64,000 nt of DNA, taken from NCBI GenBank assembly GCA_035545995.1, contig DASZXH010000044.1:1527-65526 (forward strand). The letters are read 5' to 3'. Each line of letters starts with the position of its first letter. Within the stretch, counting starts at the first letter, position 1. The translations under genes were made by a program, and so were the position numbers. Positions 8,427-13,541 of the stretch are shown here, piece after piece. The notes beneath the pieces were generated by a model. That model did not search any database and was not told where the DNA came from. It worked only from the letters and a program-made list of their open reading frames with translations. The stretch is from Verrucomicrobiia bacterium. Lineage in GTDB: Bacteria > Verrucomicrobiota > Verrucomicrobiia > Limisphaerales > UBA11358.

Positions 8427-9560
8427 ATGCCCAAGAAAAACCTGCCCACTCACTTTGTGTTGTCCTGTACAATAATTGGTCTGTTGATTCAGATAAACCC
8501 GGCTACGGCTCAAACAGCCCGACCTCAGCCACCCACACGCAACCCGCACACACCGGGATACGTCACAGCTATAGAATTGCCTGACGGCACCGTTCCTTCG
8601 CCAACGGAAGACGGAAATTTCATCATCGGCCCCACACATCATCCCGCGCCGGAAATGGTGACGAACACCAACGCGCCGCAGGGAAAAATTTTTACTTTCA
8701 CGATGAATTCCGCTGACAGCAAAATTTATCCGGGTATCGCGCGCGAACCTGGCACATTTGGCACGCCCGACCTAATCGATCCGGCCAAGCTGATTGTGAC
8801 CACCAGTCATCTCGCGCCTTACACACGCCACGTTTCAGTTTTTGTTCCGGCGCAATATGTTCCCGGCACAATCGCGCCGTTCATCGTTGGCGCGGATGGT
8901 CCCGACCATGAATTGTTCACCGCCTTGAATAATTTGATCGCCGAGAAAAAATTGCCGGTGATAATCGGCATTTCCATCGGCAACGGCAGCGGCGACGCGC
9001 AAGGCAGCGAACGCGGATTGGAATACGACACGATGTCCGGCCGCTACGCTGAATTCGTCGAACAGGAAGTTTTGCCGCTCGTGGAAAAAAATTGCGGCGT
9101 GAAGCTGACCAAAGACCCTGATGCTCGCGCGACGATGGGCGGCAGTTCCGGCGGTTCCTGCGCCCTCATCATGGCGTGGTATCATCCCGAACTTTACCAT
9201 CGCGTGCTGACCTACTCCGGCACTTATGTGAACCAGCAATGGCCGTCGAATCCCGAAACACCGGGCGGCGCGTGGGAATTTCATAAGACCATCATCCCGA
9301 ACAATCCCGCCAAACCCATCCGCATCTGGATGGAAGTCGGTGACCGCGACCTTTTTAATCCGAACATCATGCGCGACAACATGCACGATTGGGTCGTCGC
9401 GAATGAAAACATGGCGCGCGTTCTTGCCGCAAAAAATTATCATTATCAATTTGTTTTCGCCCGCAACGCCGGCCATGTGGATGGTGCGGTGAAACGGCAA
9501 TCGCTGCCTGAAGCACTGGAATGGTTATGGCAGGATTACAAACCAAGTTTGCAGAATTGA
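8427..9560 (+). CDS. secreted esterase, enterochelin-esterase-like alpha/beta hydrolase
   Basis: It has a signal peptide. 'GGSSGGSCALIMAWYHPELY' is a nucleophile-elbow-like motif, and the protein has the length typical of the 'putative esterase' family. Confidence 0.65.
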   Translation: MPKKNLPTHFVLSCTIIGLLIQINPATAQTARPQPPTRNPHTPGYVTAIELPDGTVPSPTEDGNFIIGPTHHPAPEMVTNTNAPQGKIFTFTMNSADSKIYPGIAREPGTFGTPDLIDPAKLIVTTSHLAPYTRHVSVFVPAQYVPGTIAPFIVGADGPDHELFTALNNLIAEKKLPVIIGISIGNGSGDAQGSERGLEYDTMSGRYAEFVEQEVLPLVEKNCGVKLTKDPDARATMGGSSGGSCALIMAWYHPELYHRVLTYSGTYVNQQWPSNPETPGGAWEFHKTIIPNNPAKPIRIWMEVGDRDLFNPNIMRDNMHDWVVANENMARVLAAKNYHYQFVFARNAGHVDGAVKRQSLPEALEWLWQDYKPSLQN

Positions 9561-9590
9561 CATTCAACCATTGCGAACAATCACAACAAT

Positions 9591-10697
9591 ATGAACACCT
9601 ATTTACTCATCGCCATTTTGTTGATTTGCGCCGTGATTTTCGCAAAGACAGCGCGAGCGCAATCTTTGCCTGCGGACACAACTCAAGTATTGGAAATCAT
9701 CCGCAAGAAATATGATTTGCCCGCGCTCGCGGTCGTGGTGGTGAAAGATGGAAAAATTTGCGACCGCGCCGTTGTCGGTGTTCGCAAGTTGGGCGATTCA
9801 ACGCCTGTAACAATTGATGACCAATGGCACATCGGCTCCTGCACTAAATCCATGACGGCGACACTTGCGGTGATGTTCATTGAGGAAGGCAAATTGCGTT
9901 GGGATTCCACCATCGCGGAAGTGTTTCCAGAATTGAAGGGCAAGATGGACAAACAATACGAAACGGTCACGGTCGAACAATTACTGACACAGCGCAGCGG
10001 TGTTCCCGCGGAGCCGCCTGCCGATGCCTGGAAACGCGCCTGGGAACAAAAAGAAGCGCCAACGCAGCAGCGTTATGAATTTATTCAAGCCGTGCTGGCG
10101 CAATCATCCGCCGCCGTGCCCGGCACAAAATTTATTTATTCCAATCAAAACTACGCCATTGTCGGCGCGATGTTGGAAAAAATTTCCGGCAAAGCGTGGG
10201 AAGACCTCATCACCGAAAAACTATTTAAGCCGTTGCGCATGGGTTCCGCCGGTTTCGGTGCGCCGGGCACGATTGGGAAAGTTGACCAACCATGGGGACA
10301 TACTAAAAATTTACAGCCGACACAAAGCGACAATCCGCCCGCGATTGCGCCGGCTGGTCGCGTGCATTGTTCGCTCGACGACCTTGCGCGCTACACCATT
10401 TTTCAAATGGAAGGCGAACGCAAGGATGGTTTGTTAAAAGCTGAAACCATTCGCAAACTTCACACGCCGCCGCCGGGCGAAAATTATGCCTGCGGTTGGC
10501 GCGTTTTACAGCGTGGCTGGGCAGACGGACGCGCGTTGACACACAACGGTTCAAACAACATGTGGTATTTGGTTATGTGGCTCGCGCCGGAAAAAGATTT
10601 TTCCGTCATCGTTGCGACAAATATCCGCAAAGATGACATACCAAAGGGATGCGACGAAGTTGTCGGCGCGATGATTAAAAAGTGGCTCGCCAATTAG
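9591..10697 (+). CDS. serine hydrolase, beta-lactamase (class C / PBP4*) family
   Basis: It has a signal peptide, an SxxK motif ('GSCTKSMTA') and 'YSNQNY' (a YxN motif). Confidence 0.8.
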   Translation: MNTYLLIAILLICAVIFAKTARAQSLPADTTQVLEIIRKKYDLPALAVVVVKDGKICDRAVVGVRKLGDSTPVTIDDQWHIGSCTKSMTATLAVMFIEEGKLRWDSTIAEVFPELKGKMDKQYETVTVEQLLTQRSGVPAEPPADAWKRAWEQKEAPTQQRYEFIQAVLAQSSAAVPGTKFIYSNQNYAIVGAMLEKISGKAWEDLITEKLFKPLRMGSAGFGAPGTIGKVDQPWGHTKNLQPTQSDNPPAIAPAGRVHCSLDDLARYTIFQMEGERKDGLLKAETIRKLHTPPPGENYACGWRVLQRGWADGRALTHNGSNNMWYLVMWLAPEKDFSVIVATNIRKDDIPKGCDEVVGAMIKKWLAN

Positions 10698-10704
10698 TAG
10701 GCGC

Positions 10705-10796
10705 TCAATTCTTTATCATCGCCAATTCTTCTTCGAAATCCACAATCTCTTTTATCTGCACGAGAAACCAGTGGTCAATTTTGGTGGGATTGAAAA
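10705..10796. repeat. orphan copy of the last 92 bp of carB-N (direct repeat of 11384-11475)
   Basis: Aligned by eye at an offset of 679 bp. The 76-bp core 10721-10796 has 2 mismatches. The 7 positions 10714-10720 near the stop differ at 6, changing AAAKN* to AMIKN*. Confidence 0.85.
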
Positions 10797-10800
10797 AATT

Positions 10801-11349
10801 TCAACGCCTTTTCGCCTTTGGCTTGTCGTCGTCATATTTCACATGAAACCCAATTTCGCGGCGTTTGGGTTCCGGTGGAGACATTAACTGCCGGATGGCA
10901 TCGAAGACAACTTTGAATTGTTTGTCGTATTTCTTCTCCATCGCATCCAGTTTGCGGGCGAGTTCAGCGTTGGAGGCGAGCATCTGCCGCAATTTCACAA
11001 ACGCGCGCACCACCTGCACGCTGGTCTGCGCGGCGCGTTCGCTGTTCAGCACATTCGCCAGCATCAATGCGCCGTGCTCGGTGAAGGCATGGGGTAAATG
11101 AGGTGAAAATTTGAGCCGCACGAGGTTGTCACAATTTGTGATAACCTCGGTTTTCTCGGCTTCGGTAAGTTGAAACATGAAATCTGGCGGGAAACGGTTC
11201 AAATTGCGTTTGACGGCTTGGTTCAAGGACTTGGTGGAAACGCCATAAATGACGGCCAAATCCGAATCCAACATGACCTTCTCGCAGCGAATCAGCAGGA
11301 TGGCCCGCTCGATTCGTTCCATCGGAATCAGGTTTGCATTTTCGCTCAT
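10801..11349 (-). CDS. ORF6N-domain (KilA-N-related) DNA-binding protein
   Basis: 'IRCEKVMLDSDLAVIYGVSTKSLNQAVKRNLNRFPPDFMFQLTEAE' is the ORF6N signature. The start was moved to ATG 11349 so the gene no longer overlaps carB. Confidence 0.8.
   Translation of the reverse strand: MSENANLIPMERIERAILLIRCEKVMLDSDLAVIYGVSTKSLNQAVKRNLNRFPPDFMFQLTEAEKTEVITNCDNLVRLKFSPHLPHAFTEHGALMLANVLNSERAAQTSVQVVRAFVKLRQMLASNAELARKLDAMEKKYDKQFKVVFDAIRQLMSPPEPKRREIGFHVKYDDDKPKAKRR
11122..11148. promoter_or_regulatory. 27-bp palindrome GAGGTTGTCACAA-T-TTGTGATAACCTC inside the ORF6N gene
   Basis: Read directly: 12 of 13 arm positions pair. It shares the 13-mer GAGGTkGTCACAA with the site at 11357-11380. Confidence 0.5.
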
Positions 11350-11356
11350 GGGTTTG

Positions 11357-11380
11357 GAGGTGGTCACAAATTGTGACCGC
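11357..11380. promoter_or_regulatory. palindromic candidate operator GGTCACAA-A-TTGTGACC just upstream of the ORF6N start
   Basis: Perfect 8-1-8 inverted repeat at 11362-11378, ending 13 bp from the ATG at 11349. Confidence 0.5.
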
Positions 11381-11383
11381 CCT

Positions 11384-12889
11384 TTAATTCTTCGCCGCTG
11401 CCAATTCTTCTTCGAAATCCACAATCTCTTTTATCTGCACGAGAAACCAGCGGTCAATTTTGGTGAGATTGAAAATCTCCTCGATGCTGAATCCGGCGCG
11501 CAGAGCGTGGCGGATGAAGAAAATGCGCTCGGCGTTCGGGACGGACAGTTTTCGCGTGATTAAATCGCGCGGCAAAATGTCGCGGTCGCCATAAACGTCC
11601 GCACCGATGCGCCACGGTTTGCCGTCGCCGCCCAAACCGCTGCGGCCAATTTCCAGCGAACGCAGACATTTTTGCAGCGATTCCTTGAACGTGCGGCCAA
11701 TCGCCATCGCTTCGCCGACGGATTTCATCTGCGTCGTCAGCGTGGGGTCGGCTTGCGGGAATTTCTCGAACGCGAAGCGCGGAATTTTCGTGACGACGTA
11801 ATCAATCGTCGGCTCGAAACTCGCGGGCGTTTCACGCGTGATGTCGTTTTTGATTTCATCAAGCAAATAACCGACGGCAAGTTTGGCGGCAATTTTCGCG
11901 ATGGGAAATCCGGTGGCTTTTGACGCAAGCGCGGAGCTGCGCGAAACGCGCGGATTCATTTCGATGATGACCATGCGACCGTTTTCGGGATTGACTCCGA
12001 ATTGGATGTTCGAGCCGCCGGTCTCGACGCCGACGGCGCGAATCACGGCGAAACTTTGGTCGCGCATGATCTGAAATTCCTTGTCTGTGAGCGTTTGAAT
12101 CGGCGCGACGGTGATGGAATCGCCGGTGTGAACGCCCATCGGGTCGAAATTTTCGATGCTGCAAATGATGACGCAATTGTCCACGCGGTCGCGCATGACT
12201 TCCATTTCGTATTCCTTCCAGCCAAGCAGCGATTCTTCGATGAGAATTTCGTTCACGGGCGAGAGGTCAATGCCGTTTTTGGCGATGGCTTCAAATTCTT
12301 CCTGATTATAACCGATGCCGCCGCCGGTGCCGCCGAGCGTGAACGCGGGTCGAACGATAAGCGGAAAGCGTCCAATTTTTTTCGCGATGTCGCGGACTTC
12401 GTCCATGTTGTGCGCGACGCCGGAAATGGGAACGTCGAGGCCGATACTCAACATCAAATCTTTGAACGCGAGACGGTCTTCGCCTTTGTGAATCGCTTCG
12501 GGTTTTGCGCCAATCATTTCGACGCCGTGACGTTTGAGCGCGCCGTTTTTGTGCAACGCCATCGCGGTGTTGAGCGCGGTTTGTCCGCCGAGTGTGGGAA
12601 GCAAAACGAGTTTTCCTTTTGCACCAAGTTTTTGCATTTCCGCTTTTTCGCGCGCGATGATTTTTTCGACAGCTTCGGGTGTGATGGGTTCGATGTAAGT
12701 GCGGTCGGCAAATTCCGGGTCGGTCATAATCGTCGCGGGATTGGAATTGACGAGCACGACGCGGTAGCCTTCTTCCTTGAGGGCTTTGCAGGCTTGGGTG
12801 CCGGAATAATCAAATTCGCACGCCTGGCCGATGATGATCGGGCCGGCGCCGATGATGAGAACCGAGTGAATGTCCGTTCGTTTGGGCAT
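11384..12889 (-). CDS. carB: carbamoyl-phosphate synthase large subunit, stand-alone N-terminal half (501 aa)
   Basis: The N-terminus '[50 protein letters not shown]' is canonical CarB. The ORF stops in the oligomerisation domain at '[23 protein letters not shown]'. Confidence 0.9.
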
Positions 12890-13001: not shown

Positions 13002-13541
13002 TTACTCTTTTAATTTTTTCACTTCGGTGAAGAAGGTGAAATAGCGCGAGGCCGTAAAACCAATCGGCAACAGCAAAATGGCGAGCACAAACCAATCGCG
13101 CCATTCCGGATGGCGGAACATTTCCGCCGCCAGAATCAAAACGGCCAGCAGCAGCAGCGTCAGTGAAATGCCGCGATGGAAGCGGCTCAATTCAGATTGC
13201 AGCCATGCGTCCATGCGGCTTTCCAAAACGCGGCCATGATGGGAATCGGTGCAGTTGCCTTTGAGGTGGCAGCCGTTGCAATGATGCGCCGGGGCGCGGT
13301 AGGTGGCGATTTTCCGCTGGAAATCCGTCTGTTCGCGCGTCAGGTGAATGCCGGTCGGACATTGCCAGACGTCCAGTCGCTTTTGGTAGGTGAAACCGGA
13401 ATGGCGAAAATGTTCCGAGCGGCGATGTGAATGACGCGCGATGAGTTCCAAAATCACCGCGACGCCGACGAGCAACAGCGCGTAGCCGCCGGCCAAAATC
13501 ACTTCGATATGGATGCCGTGAAACATTTTATTTTCAAACAC
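13002..13541 (-). CDS. hypothetical Cys/His-rich membrane protein
   Basis: 179 aa with hydrophobic helices at both ends. The central loop reads 'WQCPTGIHL...YRAPAHHCNGCHLKGNCTDSHHGR' and contains a CxxCH. Confidence 0.45.
   Translation of the reverse strand: MFENKMFHGIHIEVILAGGYALLLVGVAVILELIARHSHRRSEHFRHSGFTYQKRLDVWQCPTGIHLTREQTDFQRKIATYRAPAHHCNGCHLKGNCTDSHHGRVLESRMDAWLQSELSRFHRGISLTLLLLAVLILAAEMFRHPEWRDWFVLAILLLPIGFTASRYFTFFTEVKKLKE

Follow-up and report, generated by a model that had tools for sequence, protein, structure and literature searches.

How does a single small gene come to lie between two copies of the end of a housekeeping gene, with no integrase or transposase beside it? The question is raised by a locus in a 64,000-nucleotide stretch (hereafter the window, meaning this stretch at its full length) from contig DASZXH010000044.1 of a Verrucomicrobiia bacterium of the order Limisphaerales. 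Here, an ORF6N gene is bracketed by a direct duplication of the 3' end of carB-N, which encodes one half of a split carbamoyl-phosphate synthase large subunit. We propose that this 679-bp unit is an integrase-free cassette and an example of insertion with long target duplication (ILTD). Homologous recombination by the host most likely accounts for both its formation and its spread, and we give this reading a probability of roughly 0.6. carB-N most likely acts as a hotspot at which recombination exchanges defence genes. This kind of scar is known from earlier work, and the window element is an ordinary member of the ILTD class. New here are an order-wide hotspot at carB-N with arrays, recurring junction classes and a target gene that has been swept horizontally.

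A gene end duplicated around one small gene

An earlier note on this DNA had described a direct duplication of the carB-N 3' end with a period of 679 bp, and a repeat search of the window confirmed it. Positions 10707-10796 and 11386-11475 form a direct repeat of 90 nt with 91% identity, including a core of 76 nt in which the two copies are 97% identical and differ by 2 mismatches. Each copy is read in frame from the minus strand, has a stop codon at its end and lies exactly at gene borders. The insert between them is 587 bp long and has ORF6N as its sole gene; no integrase and no transposase were found in it by Pfam scan. The features of the duplication are as follows:

11384 to 12889, minus strand: carB-N, N-terminal half of the split carbamoyl-phosphate synthase large subunit, 501 aa, the insertion target (Pfam CPSase_L_D1/D2/D3)
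11384 to 11475, minus strand: functional tail copy, the last 30 codons and stop of carB-N, ending ...EELAAAKN* (repeat alignment)
10801 to 11349, minus strand: ORF6N gene, 182 aa, the insert cargo, a candidate single-gene defence protein (Pfam PF10543, 1.7e-27; PADLOC PDC-S05)
10705 to 10796, minus strand: orphan carB-N tail, 31 codons and stop, ending ...EELAMIKN*, directly after the ORF6N stop (aligns to the carB-N tail of the closest relative)

carB-N is conserved in 61 of 61 relatives, and its stop falls inside the oligomerisation domain. The host genome (G000; genomes are designated G and loci L) is a metagenome-assembled draft of 2.9 Mb in 91 contigs, and a search of all of it returned exactly two copies of the repeat, both at this locus. 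A dispersed repeat unrelated to carB, which the earlier note had named as an outcome that would undo its reading, is thereby ruled out. The two window copies share nine core differences from the closest relative, G019, and sharp divergence between them is confined to the last 16 nt, which include the differing ends listed above.

ORF6N and the orphan tail share a reading frame across positions 10705-10803, with nothing but a TGA stop between them. We considered a read-through fusion of the two; the frame is not kept at comparable loci (G035, L108, L120), and the arrangement is probably due to chance.

The empty site in the closest relative

Alignment to a relative that lacks the insert, as the earlier note had proposed, defined an empty site in G019, whose carB-N is about 90% identical to that of the window at the DNA level. 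G019 has no ORF6N anywhere in its genome. Its single carB-N tail is followed by 19 bp and then by the orthologue of a 377-aa gene of the window. Relative to this arrangement the window carries approximately 1.85 kb of extra DNA (about 9540-11382), made up of ORF6N, the orphan tail and a beta-lactamase-fold gene. Two rows complete the right side of the locus:

8427 to 9560, plus strand: conserved right flank, the 377-aa gene with its G019 orthologue 19 bp from the carB-N stop
9591 to 10697, plus strand: beta-lactamase-fold serine hydrolase, convergent with the orphan (Pfam PF00144, 1.5e-52)

The hydrolase gene, absent at this locus in G019, scores far below the NCBIfam cut-offs for class C enzymes. 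It constitutes a second difference from G019 and adjoins carB-N in no other relative examined. No recombination boundary between G000 and G019 was detectable inside carB-N, where identity is uniform at 87-90%. On the other side of the locus, directly upstream of carB-N, positions 13002-13541 on the minus strand encode a 179-aa Cys/His-rich membrane protein with a sub-threshold match (3e-5) to the C-terminal part of the transposase domain DDE_Tnp_1_6.

A hotspot across the order

The same architecture recurs at carB-N well beyond the window. A six-frame search with the last 200 residues of carB-N found that at least 15 of 61 relatives have one to three orphan 3' fragments just downstream of it, a lower bound from an unbiased first sample. 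A second sample, picked from 401 genomes of the order for multiple matches and hence biased towards such loci, likewise contained one to three orphan fragments per locus, with lengths of 18 to about 180 codons. Orphans form arrays in several genomes (G054, G010, G262, G150 and G173); the order in G054, for example, is functional tail, PIN-like gene, orphan, RelB-like gene, orphan. Dozens of independent assemblies have this architecture, including a contig of 2.3 Mb (G173) and metagenome contigs, and different downstream genes follow the orphan in each genome.

The cargo at carB-N is varied and largely of defence type. In addition to ORF6N (G035, G017, G112, G364 and G051), it includes genes of toxin-antitoxin type (PIN, RelB/RelE), restriction and modification genes (Mrr, HNH, and N6, N4 and Dam methylases) and the pairs AAA_21 with DUF4276 and AAA with RloB. 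In G020 and G070 the site is occupied by restriction-modification cargo. G010, G020 and G040 have larger bracketed inserts (3-5 kb): that of G010 holds ordinary metabolic genes (membrane, oxidoreductase) and that of G020 its restriction-modification system.

The earlier note had suggested that the window insert might be the stump of a larger island. This suggestion found no support: no tyrosine or serine recombinase was found inside the bracketed inserts at roughly 50 carB-N loci inspected, where Pfam scans covered 30 cargo proteins, and single-gene inserts recur across genomes and metagenomes. The mobility-type genes seen in or near inserts were one IS630-type DDE_3 open reading frame (ORF) in the G150 insert and a few IS200-like Y1 genes; by sequence inspection, an IS630-like ORF also lies beyond the orphan in G035. 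The IS200-like Y1 genes, which are of RAYT type, adjoin long carB-N orphans at L062 (G003), L083 (G173), L093 (G172), L067, L068 and L078, and Y1 genes near orphans have a common upstream sequence (..GTGAACGCCGCGCTCCTGTCGC..) that abuts the orphan.

Resident and incoming tails

Which of the two tails is the original one can be read from the sequences at the other loci. Genomes without an insert have a carB-N that ends ...EELAGAKN*. Among genomes with an insert, it is usually the orphan that has this canonical end (...AGAKN*), and the copy attached to the gene ends in an unusual way (AAAKN, ATAKN, AKAN or AGSTN). In six such genomes (G035, G054, G144, G070, G172 and G040), the orphan is 90-98% identical to canonical carB-N and the attached copy 79-81%. 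These differing ends and allele classes suggest that incoming DNA brings a replacement end and that the resident end is displaced towards the older downstream DNA. The earlier note was therefore right about the geometry, a regenerated gene end with a displaced orphan on the far side: in other genomes the orphan is canonical and the attached copy divergent.

The target gene itself is a mosaic. In many genomes of the order, compared across family labels that are anonymous codes, third-codon-position identity is 89-94% between -860 and -430 and 73-90% from -430 to the stop, compared to 61-66% in the 5' part of carB-N across the same labels. The last 430 nt occur as two allele classes, each of which is present in several families. 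The boundaries at about -860 and -430 are sharp (window 11384-12250; loci L055-L093). G000 and G019 do not take part in this sweep, and third-position identity between them is uniform at 73-74%. Judged from these sequence comparisons, the pattern in the 3' part of carB-N is the footprint that would be expected of a homology arm co-transferred with cargo.

Junction positions and motifs

Orphans of carB-N fall into several junction classes, at -60, -72, -92, -128, -150, -435 and -508, with no single position in common, and the duplications range from 46 to about 510 nt across loci. By eye, no sequence motif common to the four positions -60, -128, -435 and -508 was seen. No attC-like single-strand fold of the tail was predicted either; both strands fold no better than shuffled sequences (z = 0.3 and -1.1).

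One class has a distinctive neighbour. A heptad-repeat motif of about 40 nt (CTCAACC CTCAACC ATGAACY CTCAACC) always lies immediately upstream of -60 orphans and was seen at 12 loci, among them L056 (G014), L057 (G017), L059 (G054), L074 (G402), L088 (G396), L107, L109, L112 and L114-L116. At five loci that were checked, the ATG of the motif opens a frame of 27-29 codons that runs into the tail (MNxQLx...).

The ORF6N cargo

The ORF6N protein of the window matches Pfam PF10543 with 95.9 bits (cut-off 27.8), the PADLOC candidate defence family PDC-S05 (PDLC04856) at 1.1e-54 and a PHROG phage anti-repressor family at 3.7e-21. It is of the ORF6N/KilA-N type of DNA-binding proteins, probably regulates itself and is a candidate for a role in defence; in our reading it does not carry out the insertion. 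The gene is single-copy in the host genome, which rules out a multi-copy ORF6N element there. Two palindromes accompany it:

11359 to 11381, no strand: palindrome GGTGGTCACAAATTGTGACCGCC, the presumed ORF6N operator, between the carB-N stop and the ORF6N start (repeat search)
11121 to 11149, no strand: second palindrome copy, inside ORF6N, where it encodes ...VITNCDN...; found only here and in the closest metagenomic cassette (L102)

Positions 11128 and 11363 of the window are the only sites in the genome at which the palindrome consensus GTCACAA(A/T)TTGTGA(C/T) (GTCACAAATTGTGAC) is present. One to four copies precede ORF6N in 18 related cassettes. In G032, a homologue with 85% identity is located elsewhere in the genome, at a site that has three operator palindromes and is free of carB sequence.

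Linkage of ORF6N to carB-N is a property of close homologues. Among metagenome loci whose ORF6N protein is at least 70% identical to that of the window, 12 of 24 have carB-N directly upstream, compared to 1 of 56 among more distant ones, and at most of the carB-N-linked loci an orphan tail follows ORF6N. On metagenome contig L116, three ORF6N cassettes stand in tandem with a short carB-N tail fragment after each, and the cassette order in G014 is permuted. Three or four ORF6N genes in tandem were seen on contigs L116 and L128. At L064 (G051:C238), approximately 860 nt separate carB-N residues 1-457 from a further occurrence of residues 325-501, this time in the divergent allele class, after which comes an ORF6N cassette with the operator of the window.

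The earlier note had proposed to test whether other ORF6N copies are flanked by duplicated ends of host genes. This is the case for the carB-N-linked subfamily and a few others, but 15 more distant paralogues in relatives have no flanking repeats. Repeat-bracketed distant ORF6N genes were found at ssb and three other loci; in the ssb case (L133), a more distant ORF6N has the end of one ssb on one side and another ssb copy on the other, with a repeat of 157 nt and 77% identity. A general rule that ORF6N paralogues are flanked by repeats was accordingly rejected, since it applies only to the carB-N-linked subfamily and these four other loci.

The same scar at other genes

Self-comparison of the whole host genome uncovered two further tail-duplication scars, both absent from G019. 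In the first (G000:C2:45786-48349), the tail of pepF, which encodes an M3 oligoendopeptidase, is duplicated around a 146-aa DUF559 gene (98 nt, 82%). This is the textbook pattern, X-T-insert-T-Y here and X-T-Y at the empty site in G019, and neither of the two copies, attached or orphan, aligns better than the other to the single tail of G019. A homologous DUF559 gene is found at the same pepF position in G003 and G004. In the second (G000:C84:25738-27134), an inverted hicA/hicB pair is bracketed by duplicated tails of an rluA-type pseudouridine synthase gene (73 nt, 86%); orphans of the rluA tail were seen in G017 and G012. Both targets have orphans in a few other relatives. The duplication process is specific neither to carB-N nor to ORF6N.

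Origin and spread of the cassette

The window element has the marks by which ILTDs are recognized. Its direct repeats exceed 30 bp (90 nt) and align to a single-copy tail in insert-free G019, the insert is shorter than 20 kb and free of integrase, transposase and prophage genes, and the repeat is not dispersed. The published screen also looked for R and M genes in the insert; in the window the cargo is ORF6N. For restriction-modification genes, ILTDs with repeats of 46-420 bp, often over the 3' end of a gene and without mobility genes, have been described, and the authors hypothesized a life cycle in which an element invades, is amplified through the repeats and is released, the mechanism being unsolved (PMC2853133).

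We suggest that the cassette consists of the distal carB-N tail, the operator and ORF6N, and that on entering the 3' end of carB-N it gave rise to a long target duplication. Incoming DNA would supply the end of the functional gene, and the resident tail would be pushed downstream as the orphan. The cargo would then lie between two tail copies, flanked by a left homology arm (carB-N) and a right one (the orphan tail). A double crossover, or one crossover if the unit is circular, could bring the whole unit into any genome with a similar carB-N, and unequal crossing-over between the tails could amplify or delete it. The first capture of each cargo was probably an illegitimate join, and the event may have taken place in the G000 lineage or in the donor of a whole imported 1.85-kb block. 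Such a model would account for the absence of an integrase, the difference in allele class between orphan and attached copies, the swept 3' arm, the arrays and tandem copies, and the variety of downstream genes. It also fits the exchange through conserved flanks that has been proposed for core defence hotspots (PMC10250203).

Several observations weigh against this reading. The window copies are mutual closest relatives, with 2 differences between them and 9 from G019, a pattern that suits in-situ duplication or gene conversion as well as it suits import. An exact 24-mer scan of public metagenomes for the junction between orphan and hydrolase (empty-site or sister allele) returned no match. 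The left ends of orphans cluster at about -60, -128, -435 and -508, and at -128 the junctions of at least five unrelated cargos agree to within 3 nt; clustered left ends are not predicted by pure homologous or illegitimate recombination. In addition, only 0-20 nt separate the stop codons from the junctions, and such very compact cassettes look like the work of a precise process. The junction clustering, together with the motif at -60, favours some position-specific step.

Such a step could be site-specific recombination by an enzyme encoded elsewhere, which would act on attachment sites in the carB-N tail and move non-autonomous cassettes comparable to CIME/IMEX or integron cassettes. The discrete junctions common to unrelated cargos, the compact and co-oriented cassettes in arrays and the conserved heptad motif next to the 12 orphans at -60 all speak for it. 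We nevertheless consider it improbable, given that the inserts at about 50 loci are free of tyrosine and serine recombinases, that the duplications vary in length from 46 to about 510 nt, and that neither an attC-like fold nor a motif common to the four breakpoints is evident. Moreover, pepF, rluA and ssb have the same geometry without sharing sequence with the carB-N tail, which argues against a carB-specific enzyme. A similarly low probability attaches to target duplication in situ, in which a nuclease would make staggered breaks approximately 90 nt apart, foreign DNA would be captured and fill-in synthesis would complete the two copies, along the lines of the double-strand-break hypothesis put forward for restriction-modification genes (PMC2853133). 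The nine differences from G019 that the window copies share, with only 2 mismatches in 76 core positions between them, are what such copying would leave, the pepF copies are equally close to the single G019 tail, and much of the cargo encodes nucleases (HNH, Mrr, DUF559, PIN). On-the-spot copying is, however, incapable of producing attached and orphan copies of different allele classes (79% compared to 90-98% identity to the canonical gene); the last 16 nt also differ sharply between the window copies, and the ORF6N, RelB and HicAB cargos include no DNA nuclease.

Two further explanations are much less probable. A remnant of a larger integrative island, with attL and attR left around one gene after deletion of the integrase and most other genes, would have the geometry of prophage e14 or phage 21 at icd, and bracketed inserts of 3-5 kb do exist in G010, G020 and G040. 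Nonetheless, these larger inserts also lack an integrase, many genomes and metagenomes have single-gene cassettes joined at the same position, and no intact integrase island at the carB-N tail was seen in relatives, making a remnant very unlikely. We regard an artefact or coincidence, namely a chimera assembled from the alleles of two strains or a local duplication of unrelated origin, as the least credible account. The host genome is a metagenome-assembled draft of 91 contigs, but dozens of independent assemblies share the architecture, and the repeat is in frame, has its stop at the end and coincides exactly with gene borders.

A more speculative possibility, which we advance tentatively, is that the carB-N tail is the attachment platform of an undescribed cassette system. 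Units of cargo plus gene tail, carrying defence or toxin-antitoxin genes, would be inserted at about -60, -128, -435 and -508, transcribed from the carB-N promoter and moved between families by an unknown enzyme or by self-sufficient homology arms. The small conserved ORF (MNxQLxS...) before -60 orphans could be part of such a system. If true, this would be a functional analogue of the integron without an integrase at the locus.

Relation to known systems

Insertion at the end of a gene is familiar from prophage e14 and phage 21, which carry a replacement 3' end of icd and leave the displaced original end as a pseudogene fragment. These elements have their own integrase and one fixed core site. 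The carB-N cassettes resemble them in bringing a replacement 3' end and in having the displaced end on the far side, but differ in that no integrase is present in the window insert or in related inserts and in that the duplication ranges from 46 to about 510 nt. Integron cassettes offer another parallel, being compact units, mostly of one gene, that share an orientation and line up in arrays behind a fixed point with a repeated element between them; the repeat at carB-N, in contrast, is a piece of a housekeeping gene for which no attC-like fold is predicted. No IntI was found within the regions read around carB-N, to which this search was limited.

The closest precedent is ILTD. An earlier account of insertion with long target duplication is reportedly that of Nobusato et al. 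in 2000. The ILTDs described by Furuta, Abe and Kobayashi (2010, PMC2853133) are, like the element here, short inserts without mobility genes between direct repeats above 30 bp, with a single-copy target in a relative; their repeats are of variable length and often lie over the 3' end of a gene, and their cargo is selfish or defensive. The suggestion in the earlier note that ORF6N cassettes move by an unrecognized route thus stands in that movement appears integrase-free, but the type of scar had already been described as ILTD (PMC2853133). The cargo differs from the published cases, being ORF6N/PDC-S05 in the window and toxin-antitoxin, DUF559 or other genes elsewhere rather than a restriction-modification pair (PMC2853133). 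Also unlike the published cases, one housekeeping gene here serves as an order-wide hotspot with arrays of up to three orphans and clustered junctions, and the 3' part of the target gene has been homogenized between lineages (PMC2853133). Johnson et al. (2023) described core defence hotspots, proposed transfer via conserved flanks by homologous recombination and named this an open question (PMC10250203). carB-N likewise has variable defence systems at a fixed position beside a core gene, without mobile-element genes. In contrast to those hotspots (PMC10250203), it bears visible scars in the form of orphan tails and a swept arm, its flank is the coding 3' end of a gene, and the host is an uncultured soil Verrucomicrobium.

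Implications

For annotation, our results carry a warning that short in-frame gene ends beside ORF6N, DUF559 or toxin-antitoxin genes are scars and not genes. How defence islands are assembled at hotspots without mobile-element genes is an open question (PMC10250203), and the dozens of events found at carB-N, a single conserved gene, form a natural series. The insertion order recorded in orphan tails, the swept homology arm and the recurring junction classes can all be measured at this locus, and these three features make the recombination model testable. The pattern at carB-N would also mean that part of the gene for an essential enzyme has been carried between lineages owing to the genes next to it.

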